A stretch of 64,000 bases of DNA. Origin: an uncultured delta proteobacterium (GTDB taxonomy: Bacteria > Desulfobacterota > Desulfomonilia > UBA1062). Below the pieces are notes generated by a model. It did not search any database and had not been told where the DNA came from. It was given only the letters and a program-made list of their open reading frames with translations. The position numbers and the translations under genes were made by a program. Below are positions 8,193-64,000 of the stretch, piece by piece. Location of the stretch: NCBI GenBank assembly GCA_963785235.1, contig CAWAUM010000005.1:96001-160000 (forward strand), given 5' to 3'. Each line of letters opens with the position of its first letter. Position 1 is the first letter of the stretch.

Positions 8193-8257
8193 AAGTCTAT
8201 ACCCCATAATGTATTATAATTTATGCGGGAAGGATATTAGGGAGACTGATTTCTCAT

Positions 8258-8338
8258 ATTGAGTTCCTACGCTGGCATTACCCAGATCAGGTTCAACGGG
8301 TATGATCTCAGGCCCCTTATGGAACCACCCCACACGGG
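8258..8338 (-). ncRNA. TPP (THI-box) riboswitch
   Basis: Minus strand GGGGTG...CTGAGA..TACCCGTTGAACCTGATCTGGGTAATGCCAGCGTAGGAA matches the THI consensus, upstream of thiM. Confidence 0.95.
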
Positions 8339-8511
8339 CAATACAATACTAGCATTCCGGGAATACCGTCAATAGGAACAACCTGGAGAGAGTTTATTTG
8401 CAGTTATTTCACACACTCATGCCGCATATCCATGGTAGAAAAGGGCATTCATACAATATCAATCATGAATGGAGGACAGTATCTTTGGAAAGCGGCAAGG
8501 GCATTGTACAG

Positions 8512-9166: not shown

Positions 9167-9184
9167 CCTGTTACCAAGATATTT

Positions 9185-10072
9185 TCACCCTGCGAGGTGA
9201 TACCTCCCGCCATCCTCATAGACCCTGTCCTGTTCCATGAGCACCTCCAGGTGTTTTCGCATCATCATGCGCTCTGAGACGGACAGGTCCCAGGCTCCCA
9301 GGGCCTTGGGTTTACCGTAGATGATGCAGGCACTCGTTATCTCATCAAGAGTTTTGGGGCCTTTTGCAAGCAGGTCGAGCAGTTTTGCCTCCCGCTCATA
9401 GATGATGTTGAGGTAATCAAGGATAAGCTGGCTCGAGGCATCGAAGACCCCGGCGCCATGGGCGGTGAGGTAGACATCGGCCCTGATGGCGGCGAGCTTC
9501 GTAAGGGAGGAAATGGTATGCTCCAGGCTGGAAATGACATCGCCGTAATATGGGCCGGCCTTGACAAGGTCATAGTCGGCCAGGAAGAGTACACCTTCCT
9601 CCGGAAAGTGGAAGCAGAAGTGGCCGGGTGTATGGCCCGGGGTGTGGATGGCCACGGCATAGGTGTGCCCGAAATCGAGGATGTCGCCATCCTTCAGAAG
9701 CCTCTCCGGTTTCCTCGGCGCATAATGGCACTCGCCAACCAGGAAGTCTTCCCAGAAGAGGGACTCCTCACGAGTGAGCCCATACTGGTCTATAAGGGCG
9801 CTGATATCGCTGAAGGGCAGTGCATCGAGCTGTGGGACCCATAGTTCGGCATCGGGGAATAGAGAGTTGTACATGATGTGGTCTTCGTGGGCATGGCTTG
9901 TAATGATGATATCCACGCTGCGTTGCCGGTGAAAGGCCAGGAGCTTGTCCTTGTCGCTCGCTGCATCCATGAGGGCACGACGCTGATCATCCACCACCAG
10001 TGTATGGCAATGGGGGTAGCGGCCCCCGAGGATGAGCCCGATTGCTCCTTTCTGAAAGTCGAACAATTTCAC
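9185..10072 (-). CDS. Metallo-beta-lactamase-fold hydrolase with C-terminal winged-helix-like extension
   Basis: SHAHEDH, TPGHTPGH, AD, TAHG motifs. Confidence 0.85.
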   Translation of the reverse strand: MKLFDFQKGAIGLILGGRYPHCHTLVVDDQRRALMDAASDKDKLLAFHRQRSVDIIITSHAHEDHIMYNSLFPDAELWVPQLDALPFSDISALIDQYGLTREESLFWEDFLVGECHYAPRKPERLLKDGDILDFGHTYAVAIHTPGHTPGHFCFHFPEEGVLFLADYDLVKAGPYYGDVISSLEHTISSLTKLAAIRADVYLTAHGAGVFDASSQLILDYLNIIYEREAKLLDLLAKGPKTLDEITSACIIYGKPKALGAWDLSVSERMMMRKHLEVLMEQDRVYEDGGRYHLAG

Positions 10073-10243
10073 CTCTTGGAGTTGAAGCTTTGTACTGCTG
10101 TCTCTTCGAGCCTAGATGATTTGGCTGACCAGGGCAATAGGGAGATGTTTTGTGAAAGTTTGGTAAAAAGAGAACACCTGGGTTGCTATCAAGGATCTCA
10201 TGACTAATATAAGAAACTCCTAATAAACCTCCTCATAACATTT

Positions 10244-10277
10244 GCCCCCTTCGACCTAAAAGAAGAGGGTTTTTTTG
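10244..10277 (+). terminator. Rho-independent terminator on the strand opposite the flanking genes
   Basis: CCCCTTC-gacctaaaa-GAAGAGGG followed by T7. Confidence 0.55.
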
Positions 10278-10345
10278 TCCGGACAATCCAAAAGATAACA
10301 ATATAATTGTTATAATTATATCTGCTTTGGATTGGCCACCTTATA

Positions 10346-11263
10346 TCATGGAGGGCACTGGGCACAGAATGAGCGGAAGACCTCGGTGGAAAGATAACGG
10401 TCTCCCCGGTCAGGGAAGATGACAACCACGGTAGACCCGCGCGGGAGGTCGCGTGCAACCTGAATCGCACCCCACATGGCTGCGCCCGAACTGAGACCGC
10501 AAAACAAGCCTTCCTGAATGGAAAGGTCGCGTGTAGTCTCAAAGGCATCCTCGTCATTGCAGCTTATGATGCCATCGAGGCGTGCCGGGTCATAGATCTT
10601 GGGCACAATTGCCTCATGCATGTTCTTCAGACCCTGTATGCGATGATCCAGGTTGGGTTCAACGCCTATGATTTTCACGGCTGGCTTTTTTTCCTTGAAG
10701 AACATGGAGCAGCCCATGAGTGTGCCGGTAGTACCCATACCGGCAACAAAGGCATCGACCCCGCCCTTTGTCTGCGCAAAGATCTCAGGACCGGTCGTGT
10801 GGTAGTGTGCAAGGTAGTTCTGGGGATTGTCGAACTGGTTGGGCATGAAATATTGATCCCCCACGGATTCCATGATGTGATGAGCGCGGTTTATAGCCCC
10901 ATCTGTCTTGTCGCATCCGGGAGTCAGCTCGAGTTCCGCTCCAAGGGCCTGGAGAACAGCCCGGCGCTCTGTGCTTACACAGGTGGGCATGGTGAGCTTG
11001 ATCTTGAAGCCCATGGCCGCCGCCACCATGGCCATGCCTATTCCGGTATTGCCGGAGGTGGGTTCCAGGATGATCTTGCCCTTTGTCAGCTTACCTGATG
11101 CAACGGCATCCTTGATCATGAAGAACGCCGGTCTATCTTTGACTGAGCCACCTGGATTGGATCCTTCCAGCTTGGCCATGATCCGCACACCTGTCTTGTC
11201 GGAATCCCAGATATTCTTTACTTCAACAAGCGGTGTATTCCCGATTGCATCCAACACACTCAT
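10346..11263 (-). CDS. Cysteine synthase (CysK/CysM family, PLP)
   Basis: IGNTPL, NPGGSVKDR, EPTSGNTG, GMGTTGT, PDRGDRYLS; C-terminal CAQCPP tail. Confidence 0.92.
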   Translation of the reverse strand: MSVLDAIGNTPLVEVKNIWDSDKTGVRIMAKLEGSNPGGSVKDRPAFFMIKDAVASGKLTKGKIILEPTSGNTGIGMAMVAAAMGFKIKLTMPTCVSTERRAVLQALGAELELTPGCDKTDGAINRAHHIMESVGDQYFMPNQFDNPQNYLAHYHTTGPEIFAQTKGGVDAFVAGMGTTGTLMGCSMFFKEKKPAVKIIGVEPNLDHRIQGLKNMHEAIVPKIYDPARLDGIISCNDEDAFETTRDLSIQEGLFCGLSSGAAMWGAIQVARDLPRGSTVVVIFPDRGDRYLSTEVFRSFCAQCPP

Positions 11264-11550
11264 GTGGAACTCTCCTTTGAATCCTTGCCTGATGTTGTAC
11301 AGGGCTATTCATTCACCTGTTTTTCTTTTCGGCTCCTATTCAAGGTTCATTCCTGTATCAGGATCCGTTTGACGAGTCATTTTATAGTACACATAAAACA
11401 TATTTCAAGAAGCGTCTTAAGTATATTCTATTTTTGTATGAATGTCAGAAAAATGGTTGTTAAATTTCCAGTTGCCCGTTGCTCAAACACTGGTTTATGA
11501 AGACAATAGTGCTGTATGCTTTTTAGCGGCCCAATCTTACAGCACTACCG

Positions 11551-36434: not shown

Positions 36435-37754
<1,320 letters not shown>

Positions 37755-47295: not shown

Positions 47296-48097
47296 ATGGT
47301 CGATACCCACCTGTGCCAGCCTGATGCCACAAAATCATGCGCTGCCTGCTGCGGAATCTATAATTACGTGGACAACACCAGGGACTCCCTGGAAAAACGC
47401 TTTGAATCCCGCACGCAACTTTTCTCCAGGGTAAGGGAAAACACGCTTCCCATAGAAGACTATCAGGCCATTATCCGTCACAAGGAGAACCCCAAGCGCA
47501 TCTATGCCACCATCTATACCTGCGAGTTCGTGGGTTTTCTGGATGATGGCTTCAAACGGGTAGGGTGCATGCTCCATCCTCTGATGAATCACGGGGAAGA
47601 CCTGCGAGTGATAAGTTTTTACGGTAGGGATATCTGTGAAGGCCACTTCTGCCCCAGCTACCAGAAGCTCGATGCACATGAGGCGCACATCCTCCTGGCA
47701 GCCCTTGATGACTGGTACCTCTACGGCAGCGCCATTACGGATATCGACTTTGTGAAAAGCTTTTTCAAAATCATCCAGGACCGTCTTGGCGAGACACTGG
47801 ACGTGAAGAAAGGTCCGGTCCACACCTGCACTCCTTGACATTATCAGACGCTATTGCGGCCTGAAGGTATCCTGGCCGTTTCGGGATACTCTCAGGCCCC
47901 GGTTCGGAAAGTATTACTTCGTGGGTGAGGAGTATGATATTGCCCGCATCGACTATGCATCGCTTTCTGCCCCTGTCTCTGTCTATGACGCCATCTTTGT
48001 GAGCCTGTCCTCCCGGTTTAAAAGCAAGGTTGAGCTGGACAAGGCCGCACGGATGATAGATGCTCTCATGGAGGAGTTCTGCCTTGGATACAGCTGA
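47296..48097 (+). CDS. Cys-rich hypothetical protein, possible Fe-S/Zn binder (frameshift ~47810)
   Basis: C..CAACCG, CEF, GCMLHP, CEGHFCP; a second frame stays open to TGA 48095-97, just before nadC. Confidence 0.65.
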
Positions 48098-48101
48098 GCT
48101 G

Positions 48102-48915
48102 ATGGATGATATCATTCAACTGGCGCTGGATGAGGATGGAAGGGACATCACCACCGAGGCCATCTTCTCCGAGGAAAACTCTCTGCAGGCCGTCATGAAG
48201 GCAAAGGCGGACGGCATCATAGCGGGCGTACAGGTGGCCGGAAGGGTCTTTACCCTGGTAGACCCCGGCATTACCTGCAAATTCGAGGTGCACGACGGAC
48301 AATCCGTGGTTGCAGGCGCTACGATCGCTGTTATCACAGGCCCTGCAAGGGGCATACTCAAGGCGGAACGGGTGGCGCTCAATTTTTTGCAGCGCATGAG
48401 CGGCATTGCCACCAGAACTGCAGTATATGTGAAAAGGCTTGAGGGCACCAAGGCCCGCATCCTGGACACCCGCAAGACCTCACCGGGACAGCGCGTGCTC
48501 GATAAGATGGCCGTGCGGCTCGGAGGCGGAAACAATCACCGCATGGGGCTCTTTGACATGGCGCTCATCAAGGACAACCACATCGATGCGAGCAGGGTCC
48601 ATTACAGAGGCGGTGAACAGGGTCAGAAAGGCTTCCCCCGGTGTTGCCATTGAGGTGGAGGCCAGGAATCTTGATGACGTGAGGACTCTGCTGGGACTGG
48701 ATGTTGACAGGATCATGCTGGATAACTTTTCCATCAAAGACATGGAACAGGCAGTTTATCTTGTACATGGCCGCATCCCGCTGGAGGCCTCGGGAGGCAT
48801 AACGCTGGAGACCATCCGGGCAGTGGCCCTGACCGGGGTGGATTATATCTCAGTGGGCGAGATCACCCACTCGGTCAAGGCCCTTGATATATCCATGATC
48901 ATCGAGGTGGAATAA
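48102..48915 (+). CDS. nadC: Quinolinate phosphoribosyltransferase (frameshift ~48590)
   Basis: ERVALN, DTRKT, HRMGL, IKDNH; then EVE, MLDN, EASGG, ISVG. Confidence 0.93.
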
Positions 48916-49951: not shown

Positions 49952-51584
49952 ATGGGCACCAAACGCAAAGAGACCGAATGCCTTGTCATCGGCACGGGTA
50001 TTGCGGGCACAACGTGCGCGCTCATGGCTGCCAAGATGGGTATCAAGGTCTGCCTTATCACCAAGCGTTCCGACATCTATGCCACCAACACCAACCGGGC
50101 CCAGGGGGGCATCGTATACAAGGGCAGCGGCGATTCTCCAAAGTTGCTCGTGGACGACATCATGCGGGCAGGCAGGGATATCAACTCGGTCGAGGCCGTG
50201 GAATTCCTGGCCACCAGGGGGCCCGACGTCGTCAAGGAGATGCTCATCGACGAGCTCAAGGTGGACTTCACCCACCTTACCGGTGCAAGGGACGAGGATT
50301 TCGACCTGACCCGGGAGGGGGCGCACTCGGTCAACCGCATCCTCTACTCGGCAGACAACACCGGAGAGGTCATCGAAAAGGCACTTATCAAGGCGGTGAA
50401 GGCGCACCCCAATGTGGAGATCATCACCGAGGCCACTGCCATCGACCTTATAACCCTCCACCATCACTCTAAGGACATACAGGCATCCTACCAGCTGGAC
50501 AACCGCTGCCTTGGTGCATATGTATTCCGGAACCGGAAGAAGGAAGTCATGGCCATCCTGGCCCAGAACACCGTGCTGGCCACGGGCGGCCTCGGGGACA
50601 TCTACCTGCACACCACCAACGAGAAGGGCACGGTGGGCGACGGCATGGTCATGGCACAGCGCGCAGGAGCCCGCATGATCAACATGGAGTTCATGCAGTT
50701 TCACCCCACCACGCTCTACATTCCAGGGGCAAGGAGGTTCCTCATCTCGGAGGCGGTTCGCGGCGAGGGTGCCACGGCTCAAAAATCTTCGAGGCGAATA
50801 TTTCATGGAGCGCTACAATCCCGAGCTCAAGGACCTGGCTCCCAGGGACGAGGTGGCCCGCGCCATCTGGGAGGAGATGCTCCACAATTCCGAGGACCAT
50901 GTCCTGCTTGATGTTGCAAATTATGTCCATGAGGATATTCCAACCCGGTTCCCGACCATCTATGCCACCTGCAAAGAAGCAGGTATTGACATCACCAGGG
51001 AGCCTGTGCCCGTAGTACCTGCAGCCCATTATTTCTGCGGAGGGGCGCACGTGGACATACGGGGCCGGACATCCCTGAAGGGACTCCACGCAGTGGGAGA
51101 GGTCTCCTGCACCGGGCTCCACGGCGCCAACCGGCTTGCCTCCACCTCGCTGCTCGAGGGCCTCACCTGGGGATACTATGCGGCCATCGATATCACGGAG
51201 CGGATCAATGCAGGCAAGACCGTGAGTCCGTCCGTGCTCGGCTCGGCCCGTGACTGGATCCCTGCGGGCAACATTGAAAATGAAGATCCGGCTCTCATCG
51301 CCCAGGACTGGATGGCCATCAAGAACACCATGTGGAATTATGTGGGCATTGTACGGACACCGCCCAGGCTTAAGCGCGCCATTGAAGACATGCGGCACAT
51401 GTACCTGAGGATCGAGGAGTTCTACAAGGAGACCCCGGTATCCAAAGACATCATCAGCCTGTTCCAGGGCACCCAGTCGGCCATCATGGTGGCAGAGGCC
51501 GCCTTAAGAAACCGCACCTCCATCGGGTGCCATTACATAGCACCCTCGCGGGGATTGGAAGGCAATTTTCCGGCGATCAGGTAG
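49952..51584 (+). CDS. nadB: L-aspartate oxidase (frameshift ~50770)
   Basis: GTGIAG, AQGG, REGAHS, QFHPT, SEAVRGEG; then LAPRD, AHYFCGG, HGANRLASTSL. Confidence 0.93.
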
Positions 51585-52879: not shown

Positions 52880-53872
52880 TTACCTGACGAGACCTTCGGG
52901 CGTGTGCCCCATCAGGATGTCTCTGGCCTGCCGGACCACGGAATCGGAGAGGCGGTCCCCCGCTTCTCTGCTCAAGGCACCCAGGTGGGGAGAGAGGATC
53001 ACATTCTCCATTCCGGTCAGGGGATGACCGGGACTCAGGGGTTCACGGGTGAATACATCCAGTGCGGCCCCCTCGATCCGGCCTTGCTGCAATGCCTCGA
53101 GGAGGGCCTCTTCATCGATCACCCTTCCACGGGACGTGTTCACCAGGATCATGCCAGGTTTCATCATTGCCAGGGCGCGTGAATCGATAAAATTTTCCGT
53201 GTCTTTAGTAAGTGGAATATGGATGGTGACTATGTCCGAACGAGACAACAGCCCGGGCAGATCAACCGTTTTCACTTCCAGGGCGACACACTGCTCAGGA
53301 CTCATGAACGGATCATGCCCGATTATTTCCATGTCAAAGCCCCTGGCGATCCCTGCTACTCTCGATCCGATCTGGCCCAGGCCGATAATGCCAAGGGTCT
53401 TTCTCCATAACTCTCTGCCGGATGCCCATTCGGGCAAAGCCCTTCCTGCCTGTGCCCAATCCCCTGATCTCACCCACAAGTCGGCCTTGTGGATTCGCCT
53501 CAAAAGACAGAGCATCAGGGCGAAGGTCAGCTCGGCAACAGACTGGGCATTCTGGCCCCGGCAGTTGCATACCTGAACGCCGCCTTTCTTCATGGCCCCC
53601 ACATCGATGTGGTCGTACCCGGCCCCATAGGCGATCACCCCCTTCAGGGCAGGCGCTGCCCTCAAAACCGCATCATTCACCGGAACATACTCGGAGACGA
53701 TGAACTGGACCGATGATGATCCCCGGATCTTGTCCGAGAGGTCTTCGGCATTCTTCGCGTCGGCAAAGGCATAGCCCCCCAGGCCGGAGAGTTCGGCAAG
53801 GGCCTTTTCAGACATGTAGAACCGGTCGGCAAAGACGACCGCAGCGGAAGATACACTATGAGCGTTCATCAC
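52880..53872 (-). CDS. D-isomer-specific 2-hydroxyacid dehydrogenase (hydroxypyruvate reductase/SerA-like)
   Basis: GAGYD, SVAE, GLGQIG, NTSRG, ALDV, EP, SPHLG. Confidence 0.9.
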   Translation of the reverse strand: MMNAHSVSSAAVVFADRFYMSEKALAELSGLGGYAFADAKNAEDLSDKIRGSSSVQFIVSEYVPVNDAVLRAAPALKGVIAYGAGYDHIDVGAMKKGGVQVCNCRGQNAQSVAELTFALMLCLLRRIHKADLWVRSGDWAQAGRALPEWASGRELWRKTLGIIGLGQIGSRVAGIARGFDMEIIGHDPFMSPEQCVALEVKTVDLPGLLSRSDIVTIHIPLTKDTENFIDSRALAMMKPGMILVNTSRGRVIDEEALLEALQQGRIEGAALDVFTREPLSPGHPLTGMENVILSPHLGALSREAGDRLSDSVVRQARDILMGHTPEGLVR

Positions 53873-53884
53873 TGGACTGAGAGC

Positions 53885-55239
53885 CTACATGACCAGCATC
53901 AGCTTGATGTCGTTCACGTTGGTGCCGGTGGCCCCGGTGATGACGGCATCACCCAGCTTTTGCAGCACAGGGGTCACGTCGTGACTCCTGAGCGCGGCAT
54001 AGATGTCTATCCCCAGAGCCCTCGCACGTTCGAGCGTGAAGTTGTCCACAACCCCGCCGGCAACGTCCGTGGGACCATCGGTCCCGTCCGAGTCCTGCCC
54101 GACGATGACCACATCGCCGATTCCATCGATCCAGAGTGCGGCCCCCAGCGAGAACTCCTGGTTCGGCCCTCCCTTTCCCGCTTCGCCCGTGATCCTCACC
54201 GTGGTTTCCCCGCCGCCGATGATCGCACATGGAGGCTTCAAAGGACGCCGGTTCAGGAGGATCTCCTTGGCAATGGCTGCAAAGGTGCTCCAAGTTCCCT
54301 GCTTTCCCCCTCCAGCATGGTGGAGAGGATCATGGTCTCGAAGTTCAGCTCCCTGGCCTTTTCGGCAGCGCCCTCACAGGCCGCGGTACCGGCAACGATA
54401 ATGAAGTTGTCCATATTGTGGTCCGAGAGGTCCTTGGGTGTCTCCTGGGCCGGGCCTCCTTCCTTCAGATACCGGCTTACCGAGGCCGGGACCTTGTCCC
54501 AGAGTTCGTATTTGGTGAGCGTCCTGCGTGCATCGTCAAAGCTCGACGTGTCGGGCACCGTGGGACAGGTGATGTAGTCCAGCGGATCGCCGATCACATC
54601 TGAAACCGTGAGGTTGATGAGATGGGCCTGGGGATGGATGGCCTTGGCAAGCCACCCTCCTTTGATCCGGCTCAGGTGCTTGCGCACCGCATTGATCTCG
54701 ATGATATTGGCGCTGCAGGTCAGAAGCAGCTTGTTAACCAGCTTTTTTTCATCCAGACTGACCCCTTCGACCGGATAGGGCATGAGTGCCGAGCTCCCAC
54801 CGGTGATGCCTGCAAACACGATGTCTCCCGGCAGGGTCTTTCGGGCCAGAGCCAGCGCCTCCCCGGCTGCCTTGTATCCGGCCTCGTCGGGAATGGGGTG
54901 GCTTGAAAAGTAGAGCCGGGAGCGCCTCAGGGCGCCTTCCTGGCCGTATTTGCAGATGATCACCCCGTCTTCTATCCGGTCTCCCAGGATATCTTCCAGC
55001 GCTTTTGCGATGGGGTAGGTTGCCTTGCCGGTGCCAAGGAGGAAGAGCCTTCCCTGCTTCTTCAGATCAAGGCGTATCTCGCCCACCTGCAGGATATCCC
55101 CCGTGAGGTGGACCAGGTCTTTTACTGCCTTGTAGGGATCGGCCTTGGCGAGCGCATGATCCACAATGTCAAATGCTATTCTGCGTAGCCGCTCGTTGCC
55201 GTGCGCCAGCAGCGTATCCAGGTTTCTGATATAGCTCAT
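53885..55239 (-). CDS. Glycerate 2-kinase-family (MOFRL/TtuD) kinase (frameshift ~54290)
   Basis: GKA, HPIPD, GGSSAL, RKHLSRIKGG, SDVIGD; then GGETTV, GGPNQE, DGTDG, TGTNVND. Confidence 0.88.
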
Positions 55240-55391
55240 GAGTTGACCCTCCTGACGTTCCCCGTGCCCGGTAAGGGGCACGGGGTTGGATCTGCTCTCG
55301 TGCACTGCAGGGGAATTACAGGGACGGATACGGTGATCCACAGGGGTGTGGTCTCCCCGTAATACCCCTCTTTATCGTGTCTCCCATATCA

Positions 55392-56666
55392 TTAGAATGC
55401 AGCCTTGAAGTTCCTCCCGGCATAGACGGCCTGGGACCCGAGCTCTTCCTCGATGAGCAGGAGGCGGTTGTACTTGGCGGTCCTTTCGCTGCGGACACCT
55501 GCGCCTGTCTTGATCTGTCCGGCATTGATGCCCACCACGAAGTCCGCGATGATGGGGTCCTCGGTCTCTCCCGAACGCTCGGAGACCATGATCCCGAATC
55601 CCTGCCGGTAGGCAAGCTCTGCAGCGTCGAGCGCCTCGGAGAGCGTCCCGATCTGGTTGAACTTCCACAGAAGGGCATTGGCTGCGCCCTTGGGAGCCCG
55701 CTCCCTGATGCGATCCGGGTTCGTGCAGTAGAAATCGTCGCCCACGATCTGGATCCCCAGCTCTTTGGTCGCCCGGGTGAAGCCCTTGATGTCGTCTTCT
55801 GCAAAGGGGTCCTCGATGGATATGATGGGGTAGTCCTTGCAGAGCTTCTTGTAGTAGTCGAAGAGCTGATCCGTGGTGTAATCCACGCCTTCGAGCGTAT
55901 ACTTCTTGGTCTTGGCATTGTACCAGTGCGTGGCCGCGCAGTCGAAGCCGTAGCCGATCTTCTTGGCGTACCCGGAGCGGTCCACCGCCTCCACCAGGCA
56001 CTCCATGGCCTCGCGGACCTTCTTGATGGGCGTGGCGAAGCCGCCTTCGTCACCCACGTTGGCCGCTATCTTGCCGTACTTCTTGATGATGATGTCGCGG
56101 AGCTTGTTGTTGACCGCGTTTCCGATCATCATGGACTCGGAGAATGTCTCGGCGCCAATGGGGTAGATGCAGAACTCCTGAAAGTCGAGGTCGTTCGAGG
56201 TCAGCTTGCCGCCGTTGAGCAGGTTCAGCAGCGGTACTGGCAGTATGTGCGCATTGCAGTTGACGTACCGGTAAAGCGGCAGCTGGACCGCATTGGATGC
56301 GGCGCGCGCCACGGCCACCGAAACGCCTGCGATGGCGTTGGCCCCGAGCTTGGACTTGTCCTTGCTCCCGTCAAGAGCGCGGAGCTTCTCATCCACTTTG
56401 CGCTGATCGGTCACATCCATGCCGATCACGGCGGGCCCGAGGATAGCGTTGATGTTCTTCACTGCCTTGCGCACACCCATGCCGTCGTAGCGCTTCTCCT
56501 TGTCACGGAGCTCCTTGGCCTCGTTGGCCCCTGTTGACTTGCCTGCAGGGACATCGGCCCTGCCCAGTATCTCGTCGTTCACGAGCACGTCCACCTGGAC
56601 CGTCGGATTCCACCTGCAGTCCAGTATCTCCCTGGCAAAGACGTCTGTGATTTTGAACTTTTTCAT
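55392..56666 (-). CDS. Divergent second enolase (enolase paralog)
   Basis: Full-length enolase fold with QEF, GDEGG, IED, GDD, KFNQIG, KTG, but PAGKS, NGGKL and SERSGETED variants. Confidence 0.9.
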   Translation of the reverse strand: MKKFKITDVFAREILDCRWNPTVQVDVLVNDEILGRADVPAGKSTGANEAKELRDKEKRYDGMGVRKAVKNINAILGPAVIGMDVTDQRKVDEKLRALDGSKDKSKLGANAIAGVSVAVARAASNAVQLPLYRYVNCNAHILPVPLLNLLNGGKLTSNDLDFQEFCIYPIGAETFSESMMIGNAVNNKLRDIIIKKYGKIAANVGDEGGFATPIKKVREAMECLVEAVDRSGYAKKIGYGFDCAATHWYNAKTKKYTLEGVDYTTDQLFDYYKKLCKDYPIISIEDPFAEDDIKGFTRATKELGIQIVGDDFYCTNPDRIRERAPKGAANALLWKFNQIGTLSEALDAAELAYRQGFGIMVSERSGETEDPIIADFVVGINAGQIKTGAGVRSERTAKYNRLLLIEEELGSQAVYAGRNFKAAF

Positions 56667-56699
56667 GATATTGCCACTCCTTTCGAATTTTTGGATTTA

Positions 56700-58001
56700 T
56701 TATGAAATGGTACTGTCGAGGACAGTTAACGCCCGCTGTGCCTGGGGGAAGAACAGCACCGACGGGTCGGGTTTTGAAACCATGTCGAAGGCCTTCTCGA
56801 GGGCCTTCTGCGGTGATGCAGCGGAGTTCAGGAGCATCTTGTGCAGTATGGCGTCTTCCACGTTCGGCGTAGACACCACGATGCGGACGCCCTTCAAGAG
56901 TATCTTACCCAGCAGAAGGGCGTGATCCATCTGGATCTTATAATCTGCATTCAAGCGCTCTATGACCTCGTTCACGTCATGGGCACCCTCGTAGGGTATC
57001 AGCATGTCCGCCGTGCCGATCCCGTCGTAGCAGGAACTGTACAGGACGAGTACCCCTCCTGAAGCCATGACCGGGGCCAGGGCAATCAGGGGTTTGACGG
57101 ACTGGTAGAAATTGATGTTGAGCGGCCTGCCCGGCGTGGTTACGATGATGTCGGGCCTGGCCTTCAGGGAGATCTGGCAGAAGGACCTCATGAACTCGAC
57201 TGCCGCCAGGTGCGCCTCGATAACGTCGCCGGTGAATATCCCGATGGTTTCGCCTGCCTGATTCAACACCAGGTTGATGGTGAAATGGATCTTCATCATC
57301 CCGGCCGCTTCGATCATGTCGAGATGGATAGGGTTGTTCAGGAGCTGACCGGGACGGGCCTCGGCCGACATGAGCATCTCCGGCCGGTGGTTTATTTCGA
57401 TGGACCTCTCGCTCGCGACCCCCGGGAGCACAGACTTCCTTCCTCCGGAGAATCCTGCGAATTCATGGGGCTCCACCTTTCCCACGGAGATCCTCAGGTC
57501 CGCTTCATGAACGGTCCTGGATACCTCGATGGGTGTGCCGTATGAGGTCTTTCCCAGATACACGAGCTTTCCGGCGTCATACGGGTCATGGCTGATGACC
57601 GTGATCCCGTCCAGGTTCTCTTTGCCCACGATGTCGCTGATCTCGGCATCCGTAGCCGGGCGGTGCACCCCCGTGGCTATGACTACCGTGATGCAGCCTT
57701 TGTCGACCCCGGCACAGGTGAGCTCGTCGAGAATCAGGGGCATGACTTTTGCGGTGGGGACGCCCCGGGTCGAATCGGCGACGATGACGGCAACCCGCTT
57801 GGCACCCCGGGCGATATCACGCAGCAGCGGGGTACCCCTGGGAGATCCGAAGGCACTCCTGAAATCCCCGGGCCAGGAAACCCCGGACGGCTCTTCGAAT
57901 CCGATCAGGCCGAGGCAGCGCTGCCTTTGAGTCGAAATTTCAACGTCCTCGATCCCGTCGTGATAGACGAGATCGGATCCCTGTTCATGGATTCTGTACA
58001 C
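56700..58001 (-). CDS. LarA-family nickel-pincer (NPN) 2-hydroxyacid racemase/epimerase
   Basis: DSTR, ATGVHR, PHEFAGFSGGRKS, NH, FYQSVK motifs; AGGAGG then GTG start. Confidence 0.9.
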   Translation of the reverse strand: MYRIHEQGSDLVYHDGIEDVEISTQRQRCLGLIGFEEPSGVSWPGDFRSAFGSPRGTPLLRDIARGAKRVAVIVADSTRGVPTAKVMPLILDELTCAGVDKGCITVVIATGVHRPATDAEISDIVGKENLDGITVISHDPYDAGKLVYLGKTSYGTPIEVSRTVHEADLRISVGKVEPHEFAGFSGGRKSVLPGVASERSIEINHRPEMLMSAEARPGQLLNNPIHLDMIEAAGMMKIHFTINLVLNQAGETIGIFTGDVIEAHLAAVEFMRSFCQISLKARPDIIVTTPGRPLNINFYQSVKPLIALAPVMASGGVLVLYSSCYDGIGTADMLIPYEGAHDVNEVIERLNADYKIQMDHALLLGKILLKGVRIVVSTPNVEDAILHKMLLNSAASPQKALEKAFDMVSKPDPSVLFFPQAQRALTVLDSTIS

Positions 58002-58011
58002 GAGAGGCCTC

Positions 58012-58536
58012 CTATTCCCTGAGCTCCGCATGGTTTGCGTTCAGAGGGGGCAGGCCTTTTAGGTCCCGGATGATATGCATGATACCGTAGATGGTCATGA
58101 GGAAGAAGCTGAGCGGAATGGCCGCATAGGGCAGTGCCGTGGAGATGCCCAGCGCCGGGGTGACCTGCTCCCATGTCTCATTCACCAGGATGGCCCCTGC
58201 CACCGTTACGATACCAACGGTAACGGTCGCCAGGTAGATGACCATCCGCTCCAGGAACTTCTGCAGCCCCTTGGGCATCATCTCCCGGAAGATGGTGATG
58301 CCCAGGTGCCCGTTGCGCTTGTGCAGTATGCTTGCGCTGAGCAAGGCAAACCAGACGATGGTGAAACGCAGGAATTCCTCCGACCAGGTCAGCGCACTGT
58401 TGAAGACATACCGCCTGATCACATGCATCCAGGCGACCATGAGCATGACTGCGCAGATGACCATGGTGACGTCGAGCGTTGCCTTTTCGACCAAGTCACA
58501 GAACCGTTCCAGCCTTGATTTTTCCATTTCAGCCAC
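58012..58536 (-). CDS. dctQ: TRAP transporter small permease
   Basis: RYVFNSALTWSEE, HLGI, TPALG; four TM segments. Confidence 0.92.
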   Translation of the reverse strand: MAEMEKSRLERFCDLVEKATLDVTMVICAVMLMVAWMHVIRRYVFNSALTWSEEFLRFTIVWFALLSASILHKRNGHLGITIFREMMPKGLQKFLERMVIYLATVTVGIVTVAGAILVNETWEQVTPALGISTALPYAAIPLSFFLMTIYGIMHIIRDLKGLPPLNANHAELRE

Positions 58537-58594
58537 TCCTTTGAATCACTCTTCCCGGCTTTGTATTGCGCTTCCGGATCGGTGCAATTCAATC

Positions 58595-58634
58595 AAAGGG
58601 GCGGGGCTGCCTTTCGTGCAGACCCCGTCCCTTT
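58595..58634 (-). terminator. Intra-operon hairpin after dctP (attenuator or mRNA stabiliser)
   Basis: AAAGGGGCGGGG-CTGC...GCAG-ACCCCGTCCCTTT. Confidence 0.6.
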
Positions 58635-58642
58635 CTCACGGA

Positions 58643-59674
58643 TTAGAAGCCGGCATTCACGTCCTTGTTAACGGCGGTAATCGCTGCGAGCCACTGATCC
58701 ACGAAATTTTTGTCCGTGCTCGCCTTGATCTTCGCCACCACGGCACCCTGGGACTTGAGTCTCATCTTCTCCTTGTTGGCAGGGGTGACGTCGTTCACCT
58801 TCATGCCCTTGGTCCGCAGCTTGTCGATGATGGCATCCTCACGGGCCCTGTTGATGAACCGGCTGTAATTCTGAGCAAGGACAGCTCCCTGCAAAATGAC
58901 TGCCTGCTGATCCTTGGGGAGCTTGTTGAACCAGGTAAGATTCGCCACCAGGGGCATGGGGTCATAGATATGGCCGGTCAGCGAGGTGAACTTCTGCACC
59001 TCGAACATCTTGACTTCCCAGATGTTGGCCAGGGGGTTTTCCTGTCCGTCAACGACCTTCTGCTGCATGGTCAGGTAGAGCTCGGTCCATGGGACAGGAG
59101 TCGGGTTGGCGCCCAGCGTCTTGAAGTTCTCCATGTGCATGGGGGCTTCCATGGTGCGGATCTTGATTCCCTTCAGGTCATCGGGGCCGTTGATGGGGCG
59201 CACATTGTTCGTCACATGACGGAACCCGTTTTCCAGGTAGGCCAGGCCCTTGAGCCCGATGCCTTCACTGGAGTTGAGCAGGTTCTGCCCCGTGGGGCCG
59301 TCGAGCACAGCCCAGGCGACATCGTAGCTGTCAAAGGCAAAGGGGATGTCCAGGACCATGAACTTCTTGTTGAAGGTCGTGAGAGGTCCTGCTGAGGCAG
59401 TGGCCATCTCCAGCGAACCGGCTTTCACCTGCTCCACCGATTCCCGCTCTCCGCCGAGCTGGGAGTTGTAGTACAGCCCGACCGAAATCGCGCCTTTGGT
59501 CTTGTCCTCCACATACTTCTTGAATACCTGCATGCCTATGGACTGCGGATGTGACGGGGCGTTGCAGAGGGATACCCTGATCTTCTTGGGTGAAGCGGCG
59601 AAGAGCATCCCGGAGAAAAGGAATGAGACTGCCACAGCCAGAACCACCATAGTGAACCATTGAGACTTCTTCAT
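58643..59674 (-). CDS. dctP: TRAP transporter substrate-binding protein (carboxylate type)
   Basis: Signal peptide; NGFRH, KIRTM (conserved Arg), DGQENP. Confidence 0.93.
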   Translation of the reverse strand: MKKSQWFTMVVLAVAVSFLFSGMLFAASPKKIRVSLCNAPSHPQSIGMQVFKKYVEDKTKGAISVGLYYNSQLGGERESVEQVKAGSLEMATASAGPLTTFNKKFMVLDIPFAFDSYDVAWAVLDGPTGQNLLNSSEGIGLKGLAYLENGFRHVTNNVRPINGPDDLKGIKIRTMEAPMHMENFKTLGANPTPVPWTELYLTMQQKVVDGQENPLANIWEVKMFEVQKFTSLTGHIYDPMPLVANLTWFNKLPKDQQAVILQGAVLAQNYSRFINRAREDAIIDKLRTKGMKVNDVTPANKEKMRLKSQGAVVAKIKASTDKNFVDQWLAAITAVNKDVNAGF

Positions 59675-59755
59675 AAGCTTACCTCCGTGATAATTTTTTT
59701 GGCTTGCATAGTTGAGTCTGCGTTTTCCAATGTATTGTTCTCCAAAAACCGCCGC

Positions 59756-61036
59756 CTAATATCCGAACATGCGCGGCAGCCACAACGTGAGGGGCGGGAA
59801 GTAGGTCAGCAGGAACAGCACGGCCATGCTGGCCACGAGCATGGGCCAGCTCCCCTTGAAGGTGTCCTCCACCGATACCCCGGCCATGGGGCTCGTGACG
59901 AACAGGACAATCCCGAAAGGTGGCGTAGCCAGGCCGATGACCAAATTGACGCAGATGATGACGCCGATCTGGAGCGGGTCCACACCCAGGGCCCAGGCGA
60001 TGGGAGCCAGGATCGGGCCCAGCACGATGACCGAGGCGTAGTCGTCCATGAACATGCCGTTGATCAGAAGGCCGATGTTCAACAGAAGGAGAAAGCCCCA
60101 CAGCGGGAAGTTCGCGAGCGAGGCGGCCAGGATGTCGACGACCTGCTCGTTGGCGATGGCCCAGGCCGTCACCGTGGCGCTCCCGGCAAGCAGGATGACA
60201 AGGCCCGAGGTGACCGCCGTCTCCATGAAAATGGCGGGAAGATCGCGCCACTTCACATCTTTGGCAAAGAACATGGAGATGACGAAGGCATACGCCGCAG
60301 CGGCCGCCGAGGCCTCGGTCACGGTGAAGATGCCCCCGAAGATGCCGCCCAGGATGATGACCGGCAGGAACAGGGCGGGCAGAGCCTTCTTTAACTGCCT
60401 GCCCCGCTCAGGCCAGGCGACCCGTTCGTGCCTGGCCAGCTTGTCCCGCCTGGCGATGAAATATATCACCAGCATCTGGGCCACCGCGATGAGAACGGCC
60501 GGGATGATGGAGGCAAGGAAGATCCCGGCAATGGAAGTACGTCCCACCGAGATGCAGTAGAGGATCATGAGCACGCTGGGCGGCATGATGGGCCCCAGCA
60601 GCGAGGCGCTTGCCATGACGCCCGAGGCGAACGCCGGCTTGTACCCATCCTTCTTCATCATGGGGATGAGGAAGGAACCCAGAGAGGCTGTCTCGGCCAC
60701 GGCCAGGCCCACGATGGCACCCATGAACAAACACGTGCCCACCGTCACCAGGGCCAGCGCCCCCCGTACGTGCCCCACAAAGGCGTTCACGAAATCCGTC
60801 AGGTCCCTCAGAATTCTCCCCTTGGCCATGAGCTGTCCTGTCAGGATGAAGAAGGGGACGGCGAGCAGCGCGAACCCGTTCATGCCCTGGAACATCCGCT
60901 GGGGGATCAGGGTGAGCGGGTAGCCGCCGACCAGGAGGTAGATGAACGAGCTGAAGATCAGATTTAACGCAATGGGAAACCCGATGATGAGCAGAAAGAC
61001 GAAGCAGATGATCAGGGCTAGCAGGGCCGTGGACAT
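59756..61036 (-). CDS. dctM: TRAP transporter large permease
   Basis: LLAVPFFIL, IMPPS, GGIFTVTEA, TPPFG. Confidence 0.93.
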   Translation of the reverse strand: MSTALLALIICFVFLLIIGFPIALNLIFSSFIYLLVGGYPLTLIPQRMFQGMNGFALLAVPFFILTGQLMAKGRILRDLTDFVNAFVGHVRGALALVTVGTCLFMGAIVGLAVAETASLGSFLIPMMKKDGYKPAFASGVMASASLLGPIMPPSVLMILYCISVGRTSIAGIFLASIIPAVLIAVAQMLVIYFIARRDKLARHERVAWPERGRQLKKALPALFLPVIILGGIFGGIFTVTEASAAAAAYAFVISMFFAKDVKWRDLPAIFMETAVTSGLVILLAGSATVTAWAIANEQVVDILAASLANFPLWGFLLLLNIGLLINGMFMDDYASVIVLGPILAPIAWALGVDPLQIGVIICVNLVIGLATPPFGIVLFVTSPMAGVSVEDTFKGSWPMLVASMAVLFLLTYFPPLTLWLPRMFGY

Positions 61037-61218
61037 AGCCTAAACCTCCTTCAGAAACCAGGCTCTCTTCCGTTTCAGAAAATCCGTTGAACTGGGCTGT
61101 ACCGGTGGTAATCCGACGATGACCTCATTTTCTCCGCAGCCGAGAGGGAAAGCCTCACTCCTAACATGTAATAATAATCTCTCGAATTTAATATGCAATG
61201 GACAAGACGGTTGCATGA

Positions 61219-61998
61219 TCATGCACGTCCCCCTGCATCTCTCTCGGAGCGCCCCAGCAACAGGGAGATCTCCGCTGCGGCATCCAGCGCCGCCTGGATG
61301 TTCTTCTTTTTCTGTTCGTCCGAGAGACGGAAGATGGGCCCGCTGATGGTGAGGCTCGCCACGATTTTCCCCTTTTTCCCCAGGACCGGCGCCACCAGTG
61401 AATAGCTCCCCGGCTCCCGCTCTTCCAGGCTGACCGCATACCCGTCATGGCGGATCTTCTCCAGGTCCGCCTCCAGCTCCTCCGGGTCGGTGATGGTGCT
61501 CGCCGTGAACGTTTCCAGGGGCTTCCCGAAGATGATACCCCGCCGGATTTTTTCAGGGAGATACGCAAGGAGCACCTTGCCCGAAGCACCGCAATGAAGC
61601 GGAAAAACCTTTCCAACCTGAGTCACCTTGGCAACACCGTGGTGACTCTTTACTGCCTCGATGCAGATCCGGGTGCCTTCACCGGGTACATAGAGGGAGA
61701 CTTCTTCGCCACAGAGGTCCCTGAGTCTCTCCATTACCGGCCGCGCCAGATCAGTGAGGGTTGTCTCCTGAGAGATGATGCTTTTCCACTGATGGAATTT
61801 GATGCCCAGCCGGTATTTGCCCCCGGGTGTTTCACGCTCCAGGCACTTCTTCTTTTCCAGTGTGGCCAGGATACGGGAGACCGTGCTCTGGTTGAAACCT
61901 GTGATGATGCTTATCTCCGTGACGTTGAGTGAGGGGGTTTCCACCGTGAAGCAGGAGAGGATGTCAACGGCCTTCTCGACGGATTTGATGTTCGTCAC
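61219..61998 (-). CDS. IclR-family transcriptional regulator
   Basis: N-terminal HTH (SVEKA...STVSRIL), PLHCGASGK, GYAVS, LTISGP. Confidence 0.92.
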   Translation of the reverse strand: MTNIKSVEKAVDILSCFTVETPSLNVTEISIITGFNQSTVSRILATLEKKKCLERETPGGKYRLGIKFHQWKSIISQETTLTDLARPVMERLRDLCGEEVSLYVPGEGTRICIEAVKSHHGVAKVTQVGKVFPLHCGASGKVLLAYLPEKIRRGIIFGKPLETFTASTITDPEELEADLEKIRHDGYAVSLEEREPGSYSLVAPVLGKKGKIVASLTISGPIFRLSDEQKKKNIQAALDAAAEISLLLGRSERDAGGRA

Positions 61999-62147
61999 CG
62001 CATCTCCTTATGCACATATGTGATATGACCATGCACATCATGCATATTGCACAATCGTTTTATTGTTGTCAACATATTTTTACAGTACATGAATAATCCT
62101 GGATTCCCCTCCACCCGGAGGCTGGTTTCTGGTAAGAGAAGAGGAGT

Positions 62148-63134
62148 ATGGAGTACGAAATCATCGCAACCCTGGGGCCCGAGAGCAGTACAGAGCCGCT
62201 CTGGCTCAGCCTCATCTCTGCAGGAGCCTCCTCGTTCCGGCTGAATACTTCCCACCTCTCCCTTGAGCAGATCGAACACTGGCTTTACAGGCTCCTTCCT
62301 TTCCTGAAAGGGCAAGGTCTTTTTAACCGCCTCGTTCTTGACCTTCAGGGGAGCAAGTGGCGCCTCGGAGATTTTGCCCAATTCTTCATGGAGCCAGGCC
62401 AGCTTGTCGAGCTTGTATGCGCCTCGTCGGCCAAGAGTGCCGGCATAGTGCCGGTCCCGCACCAGGACTTTTTCCAGGCCGTCCTCTCCTCCGACGGGAC
62501 CATCGTGCTGAACGATGCCAGGATCGTCCTGGCTGTGGAAAAGGCTGACGCCCTCACCTTACAGGCACGCGTAGTCAGCGGTGGAGAGATCTCTTCGCGC
62601 AAAGGAATCACCTGCTCCTCGACAAGTTTCCGCAGAGAATCTCTGGGCGACAAGGACGTTGCAATACTCAATCTCACAAAGGGCATGGATGGTGTCTGCT
62701 ATGCCGTATCCTATGTGAAGGATGCACAGGAGATGGCCTGGTATCGGACCAGGACCGGCGATCAGACATATGTGATCGCCAAGCTCGAACGCAAAGATGC
62801 CCTCGAAGGGGTGGAGGGGATCGCGATGTTCTCGGACGAGCTGTGGCTCTGCAGGGGTGATCTTGGTGCAGAGATGGGGCTGGTAGCCATGGCCGAGGCG
62901 GTCCACCGGTTCTCCCACAGGGTGCGCTCCATGTCCAAGCCCGTACTTCTGGCTGGGCAGGTTCTGGAGCACATGACAACATGTCCGATCTCAACCCGTT
63001 CCGAGGTGTGCTGTCTGCATGATGCCCTGGCTAAGGGATACAAGGGCATAGTCCTCTCCGACGAGACTGCTATAGGCAAATATCCAGTCGAAAGCTGCCA
63101 TACGGCGGCCATGTTCAAGACAAGCGCTCCCTAA
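62148..63134 (+). CDS. Short divergent pyruvate kinase-family protein (lacks the C-terminal regulatory domain)
   Basis: IATLGP, RLNTSH, DLQG, AKLE, RGDLG, TRSE, LSDETAIGKYP; 328 aa. Confidence 0.88.
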   Translation: MEYEIIATLGPESSTEPLWLSLISAGASSFRLNTSHLSLEQIEHWLYRLLPFLKGQGLFNRLVLDLQGSKWRLGDFAQFFMEPGQLVELVCASSAKSAGIVPVPHQDFFQAVLSSDGTIVLNDARIVLAVEKADALTLQARVVSGGEISSRKGITCSSTSFRRESLGDKDVAILNLTKGMDGVCYAVSYVKDAQEMAWYRTRTGDQTYVIAKLERKDALEGVEGIAMFSDELWLCRGDLGAEMGLVAMAEAVHRFSHRVRSMSKPVLLAGQVLEHMTTCPISTRSEVCCLHDALAKGYKGIVLSDETAIGKYPVESCHTAAMFKTSAP

Positions 63135-63328: not shown

Positions 63329-64000
63329 TTGTCTGATCCGACTATAGGCATCCTCGCAGGAATGGGGCCTCGGTCGACGGGTTCCTTTCTCGACTTGGTA
63401 GTTACAGCTTGCCAGGACTTGTATGGGGCGCATCATGACATCGACTTTCCCAGGATGCTGATCTGCTCACAGCCTGCACCGTTCTATGAGGATCGTCCCA
63501 TCGACCATGCTGCGCTTGAGGCTGCAACACTCAATGGTCTGAAGTACTTGGAGTCAGCGGGTGTTGATTTCCTCGCAATGGCGTGTAACACAGTGCACAT
63601 TTATTACCATCGGCTCGCCGCTTCGGTTTCTGTTCCCTTGCTCAATATTGTTGATTCGGCCGTACACGCAGTGCCTAGAACGACTGGGCCAGTCGCCCTT
63701 GTAGCCACGCGGCCAACCGTTGCATCATACATCTTTCAGAGTGCGCTGCAGGCCGCAGGCCATAGCTGCGTCGAATTGGATTGGCAAGAACAGGTTGACG
63801 CCATGCTTTCGGGCGTACGCGAATCAAGCGATCCCGCGTTCTTTCGTCGCCAATGGGCACTTATCCTCGAGAAGGCTTACGCGGCGAAAGTCGGGGCTGT
63901 TTTGGTCGCCTGCCTCGACCTCAGTGGAGTCTTACGCTTCGCTGAAACTAAATTGACTGTCGTTGATGCCGCAGAGTGTTTGGCGCAGGCCTTAGTGAAT
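63329..64000 (+). CDS. Aspartate/glutamate racemase-family protein (runs off the window)
   Basis: AGGAG + TTG; reads IGILAGMGPRST, MACNTVH, LVACLDL (two catalytic Cys). Absent from the ORF track because no stop codon is in the window. Confidence 0.85.
   Translation, partial: MSDPTIGILAGMGPRSTGSFLDLVVTACQDLYGAHHDIDFPRMLICSQPAPFYEDRPIDHAALEAATLNGLKYLESAGVDFLAMACNTVHIYYHRLAASVSVPLLNIVDSAVHAVPRTTGPVALVATRPTVASYIFQSALQAAGHSCVELDWQEQVDAMLSGVRESSDPAFFRRQWALILEKAYAAKVGAVLVACLDLSGVLRFAETKLTVVDAAECLAQALVN

Follow-up and report, generated by a model that had tools for sequence, protein, structure and literature searches.

A cross-phylum operon of a LarA homologue, a variant enolase and a class II glycerate-kinase-type enzyme: a candidate route from a hydroxy acid to phosphoenolpyruvate in an uncultured delta proteobacterium

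We analysed a stretch of 64,000 nucleotides (positions 96,001 to 160,000 of contig CAWAUM010000005.1, assembly GCA_963785235.1) from an uncultured delta proteobacterium of the UBA1062 lineage; this whole stretch is called the window. Between positions 52,880 and 63,134 the window carries a co-directional operon headed by a gene for an IclR-family regulator, together with a divergent gene that resembles pyruvate kinase (PK). The features of the region, with the profile scores that identify them, are as follows.

61219-61998, minus strand: IclR-family regulator, first gene of the operon (IclR_C 132 bits, HTH_IclR 41 bits)
59756-61036, minus strand: DctM, large membrane subunit of a tripartite ATP-independent periplasmic (TRAP) transporter (TIGR00786, 379 bits, above cut-off)
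58643-59674, minus strand: DctP, TRAP solute-binding protein (TIGR00787, 252 bits, above cut-off)
58012-58536, minus strand: DctQ, TRAP small membrane subunit (Pfam DctQ, PF04290, 101 bits)
56700-58031, minus strand: LarA homologue, here LarAh (Lar_N PF09861, 181 bits; LarA_C PF21113, 52 bits)
55392-56666, minus strand: second enolase, here Eno2 (TIGR01060, 518 bits, cut-off 300; Enolase_N 171 bits, Enolase_C 364 bits)
53885-55341, minus strand: class II glycerate-2-kinase-like gene (DUF4147 and MOFRL), frameshifted (DUF4147 229 bits)
52880-53872, minus strand: D-isomer-specific 2-hydroxyacid dehydrogenase, last gene of the operon (2-Hacid_dh_C 213 bits)
62010-62024, 62031-62045 and 62046-62057, between iclR and the PK-like gene: three putative operator boxes of variant sequence, found by eye
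62148-63134, plus strand: short PK-like gene (short PK), 328 amino acids, divergent from iclR (PF00224, 147 bits)
36435-37724, elsewhere in the window: canonical enolase (TIGR01060, 675 bits)

Open reading frames and family profiles returned the gene set and coordinates given for this region by the original prediction, which had been made from the letters of the window. Transcription on the minus strand runs in the order iclR-dctM-dctP-dctQ-LarAh-Eno2-kinase-dehydrogenase, with intergenic gaps of 12-182 nt. The TRAP set is complete, all three subunits passing their cut-offs (TIGR00787, TIGR00786 and PF04290). The nearest NCBIfam equivalog of the IclR protein, BhcR, scores 160 bits and so falls below its cut-off of 350. 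The canonical enolase that had been placed elsewhere in the window is real, and the enolase of the cluster is an extra copy. On one side the cluster is flanked by nadC-nadA-nadB and an EamA transporter gene and on the other by Asp/Glu-racemase-family, STAS, CMD and ankyrin genes, all of them unrelated to it. Its G+C content (0.56-0.62 per kb) lies about 6-11 points above that of the contig (0.50), which fits acquisition by transfer. The Asp/Glu-racemase-family gene (window 63329-64000 and onward; L001:1330-2037) is co-directional with the PK-like gene and lies 195 nt 3' of it. Its top NCBIfam match is the cysteate racemase CuyB, at 121 bits against a cut-off of 190, and no other locus examined has such a gene beside the cluster or the PK-like gene.

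A search with LarAh across one genome per species yielded nine loci, in each of which LarAh is present by construction, from Syntrophaceae/Deltaproteobacteria, Bacillota and Synergistaceae metagenome-assembled genomes (MAGs), that is, from three phyla. In 9/9 of these loci the genes for LarAh, Eno2 and the kinase stand side by side, and LarAh is 49-82% identical across the related ones. DctM, DctP and DctQ are all encoded in seven loci, and an eighth (L007) has DctQ only, the short contig ending there. IclR is present in six of the nine (GntR in one) and the dehydrogenase likewise in six. This arrangement is far beyond chance. The expectation that the genes would keep company in other genomes is thereby upheld, through the adjacent core in three phyla and through a shared operator 5' of iclR that is described below.

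With Eno2 as the query, 401 sampled genomes from the phylum of one Bacillota carrier gave seven Eno2-type genes in six genomes; the kinase adjoins four of these copies and LarAh adjoins four, and two copies lie on short contigs. Among 52 genomes of the window's own order, the IclR-type cluster was found in 11 by way of Eno2 and in a twelfth, the frameshift-rich genome G051 (locus L008). Two more genomes of the order have a second version of the cluster, 45-65% identical, in which GK' is the glycerate-kinase-type gene.

L063 (G045:C23), 3621-11399: Eno2'-GK'-DctM-DctP-DctQ-LarAh'-GntR
L064 (G040:C30), 3771-10766: Eno2'-GK'-DctM-DctP-DctQ-LarAh'-GntR

A metallophosphatase/PLD pair and an SBF transporter gene border the second version, and in L003 and L004 the first version stands at this same place in the chromosome. 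The patchy distribution, foreign G+C content and cross-phylum identity of the cluster indicate that it is a mobile metabolic module.

The content of the operon varies between loci. In L051 (G302:C100, 5147-12941) the co-directional order is LarAh-Eno2-GK-PEPCK-dehydrogenase, and the phosphoenolpyruvate carboxykinase (PEPCK) passes NF006821 (588 bits against 369). A gene of the ComB-type 2-phosphosulfolactate phosphatase family is convergent to this operon. A canonical PK gene and a CdaR-type regulator gene stand beside Eno2 in L050. Directly upstream of Eno2-GK-LarAh, L010 has the genes for an aldehyde:ferredoxin oxidoreductase and its ferredoxin, and in two Bacillota loci (L006 and L048) a gene for a flavin mononucleotide (FMN)-dependent L-2-hydroxyacid dehydrogenase lies 3' of the kinase gene. 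Two Eno2 copies lie within a single genome at a distance of 10 kb (L048/L049; G075:C1, 2866000-2880462), one together with a TAXI-type TRAP binding protein, a kinase and the FMN dehydrogenase, the other together with a LarA homologue; the TAXI-associated set adjoins hydantoinase A/B genes and an octopine-dehydrogenase-family gene. A D-Ala-D-Ala ligase gene stands directly beside the cluster at L002 (4735-5742), L008 (4731-5762) and L006 (16610-17542), in two phyla. A VanH-like link suggested by these ligase neighbours found no further support and was dropped.

In six related loci a TTGACA -35 element 5' of iclR is followed by the boxes ATCACATTGTGCAT and ATGCACAATGTGCAT, and an 11-mer from these boxes is present in 6/6 of the related iclR promoters. 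The boxes of the window lie just downstream of the TTGACA -35 element of iclR, in a 149-nt region common to iclR and the PK-like gene. Just beyond the boxes there is a promoter-like site for the PK-like gene (62069-62097), and terminator-like hairpins are found 3' of the dehydrogenase gene (52875-52861 and 52807-52784), such promoter- and terminator-like sites being no more numerous in the region than chance would give. A genome-wide scan for the operator gave a single perfect palindrome elsewhere (C4:65596), which is intracoding and was taken as chance. The IclR domains of the regulator and the conserved boxes at its own promoter are the marks of an IclR regulon with a putative operator.

Both domains of LarAh score above cut-off, and the protein is predicted to be a nickel-pincer-cofactor 2-hydroxyacid racemase or epimerase of the LarA superfamily, in an uncharacterised subgroup. 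As judged from motif equivalence, not from structure, it retains the equivalents of the catalytic residues His108 and His174 and of Arg75, Lys184 and His200, which bind the nickel-pincer nucleotide (NPN) (LarA1 numbering, PMC11770544). Its motifs STRGVP, GVHR, EPHEFAGFSGGRK and INH align with their counterparts in 2yjg and 6d6z and are invariant or nearly so across 12 members of the subfamily; EPHEFAGFSGGRK and IQMDH are invariant in 12/12. No equivalog is reached, LarAh scoring 341 bits against a cut-off of 500 for the LarAH6 malate racemase and 306 against 460 for the LarA lactate racemase. The specificity positions hold Glu and Phe, both after the second catalytic His, and then an invariant Q-M-D-H, at the place of W-E/Q/T in lactate and H/Q-K in malate racemases, where the register of the second specificity pair is uncertain by one residue. 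The Lys with which malate and tartrate racemases bind the second carboxylate is missing, and invariant Glu, Asp and His residues are found instead (PMC11770544), which makes a dicarboxylate such as tartrate or malate unlikely. Tartrate, one of the candidates put forward in the original prediction, was rejected on account of this acidic, Lys-less pocket, while other C3-substituted acids stay in contention. Genes for the biosynthesis of the cofactor occur elsewhere in the genome, all above cut-off (LarC 369, LarE 300 and LarB 221 bits). Homologues align from residue 10-11 of LarAh, so translation probably begins about 10 codons 3' of the ATG given. The genome also has a second, distant LarA-like gene (G000:C5:509248-509931; 26% identical).

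Eno2 passes the enolase profile TIGR01060 at a lower score than the canonical copy, and its best PDB match is the M. jannaschii enolase 2pa6 (490 bits; all others at most 411). Residues are given here in yeast-enolase numbering. Across 11 sequences Eno2 retains the equivalents of the metal ligands Asp246, Glu295 and Asp320 and of Lys345, Glu211, Lys396, Arg374 and Ser375, and the motifs FDCAA, SIEDPF, VGDD, LWKFNQ, VGDEGG and GQIKTG are kept in 11/11. His373, on the other hand, is replaced by Glu in 11/11 (SERSGETED, compared with SHRSGETED in the canonical copy) and His159 by Leu in 10/11 (NGGKLTSN, compared with NGGKHADN). Three further motifs are changed: SGASTG to AG[RK]STG, DSRGNPT to DCRWNPT and AASxF to AATH[WFL]. 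Mutation of the equivalents of His159 and His373 cripples yeast enolase; a literature search on the two histidines returned no article. The enolase of the second cluster version has Glu373 and AATH and has kept His159.

Eno2 is always an extra copy, a canonical enolase being present in the window's genome and in 5/5 other carriers tested. It is also the best conserved protein of the cluster, with 66-91% identity across related loci and about 48% to the canonical copy. That the cluster contains an additional and altered enolase was part of the original prediction, and the motif comparison and the canonical copies bear it out. Among the best 150 representatives of the family in a 50%-identity set, a search that did not enumerate the Eno2 clade, SHRSGET occurs in 101 and the exact motif SERSGET in one; P0001 and P0003 (both with AATH) and P0049 have Glu at 373 in variant motifs. 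Other representatives (P0005, P0036, P0042, P0047, P0052, P0065, P0070, P0078 and others) have Ala, Val, Ile or Gly in place of His373, often with QD or ED instead of QE at Glu168. These His373-less representatives are further enolase paralog clades.

The kinase gene contains the domain pair of class II glycerate kinases (GK), DUF4147 and MOFRL, with MOFRL in a second frame. The DUF4147 frame (54253-55341) meets a stop at 54253 after 362 codons, and the MOFRL frame runs from 53885 to about 54289, which places the break near 54290-54300. Alignment with intact homologues of 453-458 amino acids, such as that of L048 (DUF4147 253 bits, MOFRL 113 bits), shows that the window gene is one base short. 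Were this frameshift genuine, the operon would be dead in this genome, and the missing base and early stop are what one would then see. We think this unlikely and ascribe the break to the assembly because nadB (49952-50911 and 50769-51584), nadC (48060-48653 and 48439-48915) and the canonical pyruvate kinase gene on another contig of the genome (G000:C13:125675-127062) are split in the same way. Breaks of the same kind are also found in a related long-read-type MAG (G051), and both kinase frames are otherwise intact and conserved. The gene is probably intact in life and the assembly prone to indels.

The kinase homologue of L002 matches P. horikoshii PH0495 (1x3l) with 351 bits and T. maritima TM1585 with 269 bits. 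The archaeal equivalogs of NCBIfam are not reached (235 bits against 550). Every characterised class II glycerate kinase yields 2-phosphoglycerate (2-PG), according to the available part of PMC2063504, and conversion of D-glycerate to 2-PG is assigned to the operon's kinase provisionally, from the match of its L002 homologue to PH0495. Elsewhere the genome encodes another class II glycerate kinase (G000:C5:217313-218668), which is 38% identical and has canonical motifs.

The best PDB matches of DctP are 4p47, 4p9k/4pak, 4pdh and 4xeq, at 211-225 bits, compared with 157 bits for the isethionate binder 8t9t. DctP keeps Arg152, Arg173, Asn213, an aromatic residue at position 196 and an acidic residue at 76 (4P47 numbering, PMC11668362). 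On the ligand assignments of the same paper, 4PDH, 4P9K/4PAK and 4XEQ hold pantoate or D-erythronate and 4P47 is open, and the residue profile of DctP fits a hydroxylated monocarboxylate as its predicted ligand. The dehydrogenase scores below all NCBIfam equivalog cut-offs, its best scores being those of PGDH (255 bits) and glyoxylate reductase (240 bits). Its best PDB matches are 1wwk and the Pyrococcus glyoxylate reductases 5aov and 2dbq, and it is probably of the hydroxypyruvate/glyoxylate-reductase type.

The short PK consists of barrel and lid, with no PK_C domain, and scores 180 bits against the TIGR01064 cut-off of 306. A structural model (pLDDT 88) has the fold of pyruvate kinases (Z 33-34). 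Without variation, 13 orthologues share the catalytic motifs RLNTSH, DLQGSKWR, AKLER and CRGDLGAE. In the same 13 the canonical ATQMxESM reads AGQVLEHM, so that Gly replaces a Thr that we take to sit next to C3 of the enolpyruvate. The best sequence match is E. histolytica PK (8iw2, 321 amino acids, 170 bits), which is deposited as a pyruvate kinase and is likewise short, free of the C-domain and endowed with an AG[QE]V[LM]EH motif, although it is a eukaryotic protein; no paper on the activity of 8iw2 was found. The pyruvate-kinase-like label that the original prediction gave this gene stands for the barrel domain; the PK_C domain is missing and the family cut-off is not reached.

Gene content, conservation, the operator, the kept and changed residues and the co-occurrences are observed. 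From these we infer a substrate and a direction for each step: the cluster, which is a real, cross-phylum operon, would take an imported hydroxy acid to phosphoenolpyruvate (PEP), with glycerate, in both enantiomers, as the likeliest substrate. We favour this reading with moderate confidence. The operon would be catabolic and repressed by IclR. Its TRAP system would import a small monocarboxylate with several hydroxyl groups, D- and L-glycerate being the likeliest, and LarAh, with its nickel-pincer cofactor, would invert C2 so that both enantiomers reach the D form; on the best reading, C2 stereochemistry is the problem that the route has to solve. The D-2-hydroxyacid dehydrogenase may connect the pools of hydroxypyruvate and D-glycerate. 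The class II glycerate-kinase-type enzyme would phosphorylate the C2 hydroxyl, and the variant enolase would remove the C3 hydroxyl to give PEP. In one bacterial family the short PK, having no allosteric C-domain, may then form pyruvate and ATP free of control by the sugar phosphates that activate the housekeeping enzyme.

The PEPCK gene in the L051 operon and the canonical PK gene beside Eno2 in L050 argue for PEP as the product and for glycerate as the likeliest substrate. That the Bacillota and Synergistaceae carriers have canonical PK only points to PEP itself as the product of the enolase. PEP-consuming enzymes at the exit and redox or racemase enzymes of C2 at the entry fit a route from glycerate to PEP. 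A glycerate-like substrate is further suggested by the match of the kinase homologue to PH0495, class II glycerate kinases making 2-PG, and by the aldehyde:ferredoxin oxidoreductase of L010, which recalls the archaeal step from glyceraldehyde to glycerate (both as given in the available text of PMC2063504). It is also suggested by the FMN-dependent L-2-hydroxyacid dehydrogenase in two Bacillota loci, by the carboxylate-binding residues of DctP and its grouping with pantoate and erythronate binders, and by LarAh, which lacks the Lys for a second carboxylate and belongs to a superfamily in which glycerate racemisation has been seen in vitro (in the part of PMC11770544 available).

A number of points weigh against glycerate and ordinary 2-PG. 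The case for them is one of sequence comparison. LarAh lies outside the glycerate-preferring LarA group and below every NCBIfam equivalog cut-off, and the nearest solved solute-binding proteins hold C4-C6 acids, not glycerate. In the kinase subfamily SGGGSxLFxLP has become TGGSSALMPYP and IASGP has become ITCP, the unswapped motifs being common to both solved proteins and to the genome's own second class II glycerate kinase; the short PK has its Gly for Thr. The original prediction had spoken of active-site changes in all three glycolytic paralogs, which holds for the enolase and the PK-like protein, whereas the kinase shows only subfamily-specific changes at conserved motifs. A housekeeping enolase would suffice if the intermediate were ordinary 2-PG, and the glycerate reading does not explain why a private enolase with Glu373 and Leu159 is so strictly kept everywhere. 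Because the reason for this private enolase is left unexplained, a C3-substituted substrate or a different C3 leaving group is kept in play, and the two together seem to us a possibility of modest weight. Kinase, His-less enolase and epimerase, joined by the short PK where it is present, would then form a route that activates by phosphorylation, eliminates and recovers ATP, working on something other than 2-phospho-D-glycerate and starting from a 2-hydroxy acid that ordinary dehydratases do not accept: a tetronate, 2,3-dihydroxybutyrate, a 3-substituted lactate that loses sulfite or ammonia, or 2-PG in its L form. We entertain that proposal tentatively.

One form of this proposal was preferred in the original prediction, namely that a C3-substituted 2,3-dihydroxy acid such as D-erythronate, threonate or 2,3-dihydroxybutyrate is epimerised at C2 by LarAh and converted, by ATP-neutral phosphorylation, elimination and dephosphorylation, to a 2-oxo acid other than pyruvate. 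It would account for an enolase that is always an extra copy and for subfamily-specific changes at conserved motifs of Eno2, kinase and short PK alike, including the Gly that replaces the Thr next to C3 of the enolpyruvate. It also agrees with the closest solved solute-binding proteins, which were crystallised with D-erythronate or pantoate (PMC11668362), and with the Glu and His that LarAh shares at its specificity positions with gluconate 2-epimerases (PMC11770544). We nevertheless consider it unlikely. It is weakened by the PEPCK and canonical PK genes of L051 and L050, the Bacillota and Synergistaceae carriers have no short PK, and no cluster contains an aldolase or an aminotransferase for a C4 2-oxo acid; tartrate in particular is disfavoured by LarAh, and the E. 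histolytica protein, which shares the Gly motif, was deposited under the name of pyruvate kinase. A product of PEP and a remodelled leaving-group pocket (Glu for His373, a new Arg or Lys in the Ser39 loop, a new His in AATH) would be reconciled if the substrate were a 3-substituted lactate, for example 3-sulfolactate or isoserine, from which Eno2 eliminates sulfite or ammonia. The ComB-type gene convergent to the L051 operon and the racemase gene 3' of the PK-like gene, whose best but sub-threshold match is cysteate racemase, might be read in its favour. Each of these neighbours, however, occurs in a single locus, genes for handling sulfite are not in the cluster, the LarAh pocket is acidic rather than basic, which speaks against a sulfonate, and DctP is nearer to the pantoate and erythronate binders than to the isethionate binder. 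To our knowledge isoserine is not an abundant substrate. We regard a 3-substituted lactate as improbable.

Whether the short PK belongs to the glycerate-to-PEP route is a separate matter. Among the 52 genomes of the order it occurs in 15, plus one fragment: in 13 of the 14 cluster-bearing genomes (the exception is 84% complete) and in two of the 38 cluster-less ones, plus the fragment, the genomes being kin and the counts therefore not independent. The same pattern recurs within three genera, and the gene adjoins the cluster in two independent arrangements, divergent in the window and as the last gene of the operon in G048. These observations argue that it takes part. The short PK might instead be a lineage-specific PK paralog that stands beside the cluster by chance in two genomes, and some observations speak for this. 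At 11 other loci the gene stands alone in varied, unrelated contexts, it is found in none of the nine loci within ±10 kb of LarAh, the Bacillota and Synergistaceae carriers lack it, and two genomes, plus the fragment, have it in spite of being cluster-less. The operator box is absent from all 13 short-PK upstream regions scanned, one of which is 26 nt only and one of which belongs to the operon-internal G048 copy. We judge a place outside the pathway doubtful, if deserving of some credence. The short PK is in any case lineage-specific and outside the core beyond one bacterial family. Its inclusion in the unit, as first predicted, is thus borne out by adjacency in two genomes and by co-occurrence, and weakened by its absence from the core outside one bacterial family and by the lack of an operator where it stands alone.

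If the glycerate reading is true, the operon would provide a physiological role for nickel-pincer glycerate racemisation, which the available text of PMC11770544 reports in vitro only, for LarA enzymes of another subgroup, and calls of undetermined significance; it would also account for the use of either glycerate enantiomer by anaerobes. If instead the specificity of the private enolase is new, enolases of the E373 type would represent a new reaction specificity, and so a rare functional departure, within the enolase family proper, and the operon a new ATP-neutral strategy of dehydration. On either reading, the Glu373/Leu159 enolase offers a test, set up by nature, of two positions that have long been regarded as invariant. 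Databases label all genes of the cluster as ordinary glycolytic or lactate-racemase enzymes, and the pathway is consequently invisible in the annotations of anaerobic digester and sediment bacteria. The statement of the original prediction that no described pathway has this gene set agrees with our literature search, which found no description of a LarA-enolase-kinase set; the genomic-context supplement of PMC7583248, which may list such neighbours, was outside that search.

The individual proteins differ from their characterised relatives in distinct ways. LarAh shares with the LarA superfamily (LarA1, Mar2/LarAH6, GntE and the glycerate-preferring LarAH43; PMC7583248, PMC11770544) the His-His pair, the NPN motifs, the fold family and the presence of the cofactor genes in the same genome. 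Its subgroup has no characterised member, and its E, F, Q-M-D-H combination is unlike those of LAR (F, F, W, E/Q[/T]), MAR (H/Q, K), HGR and GntE (E, V, A, H). Eno2 is like canonical enolase (EC 4.2.1.11) in its family score, metal ligands and remaining catalytic residues and unlike it in the two histidines, the three motifs and its constant position as a second copy beside its own kinase. DctP has the same carboxylate-binding Arg/Arg/Asn set, aromatic lid and acidic residue as the solute-binding proteins 4PDH, 4P9K/4PAK, 4XEQ and 4P47.

As a pathway, the operon most resembles, in the glycerate reading, the lower branch of the non-phosphorylative Entner-Doudoroff pathway, in which glyceraldehyde is converted via glycerate, 2-PG and PEP to pyruvate by class II glycerate kinase, enolase and PK (as set out in the available part of PMC2063504). 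The three reaction types and their order are the same, the two kinases both belong to the MOFRL family, and L010 has in addition the aldehyde:ferredoxin oxidoreductase step. The nearest solved relatives of the operon's kinase and enolase are archaeal (1x3l and 2pa6). The known branch uses the housekeeping enolase and PK, by the account in that part of PMC2063504, whereas the operon encodes its own enolase, a LarA-type racemase, a TRAP transporter and, in one family, a PK without the C-domain. Catabolic clusters that pair a class II glycerate kinase with a pyruvate kinase are already known from Pseudomonas, M. extorquens and A. vitis (PMC2063504, in the text available), and the pyruvate kinase ttuE is induced by tartrate and not essential (PMC4811896, likewise). 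The ttuA-E tartrate cluster of A. vitis, the gcl/glyoxylate cluster of Pseudomonas and the M. extorquens cluster thus share with the operon a class II glycerate kinase and an inducible PK and end in glycerate. Within the portions of these two papers available, they differ from it in having no LarA homologue, second enolase or TRAP transporter, in PKs that are not reported to lack the C-domain, and in regulators of LysR type, where the operon has IclR or GntR. The novel elements are the dedicated subgroup of LarA, the clade of His-less enolases, the framing by a TRAP transporter and an IclR or GntR regulator, and the PK without a C-domain.

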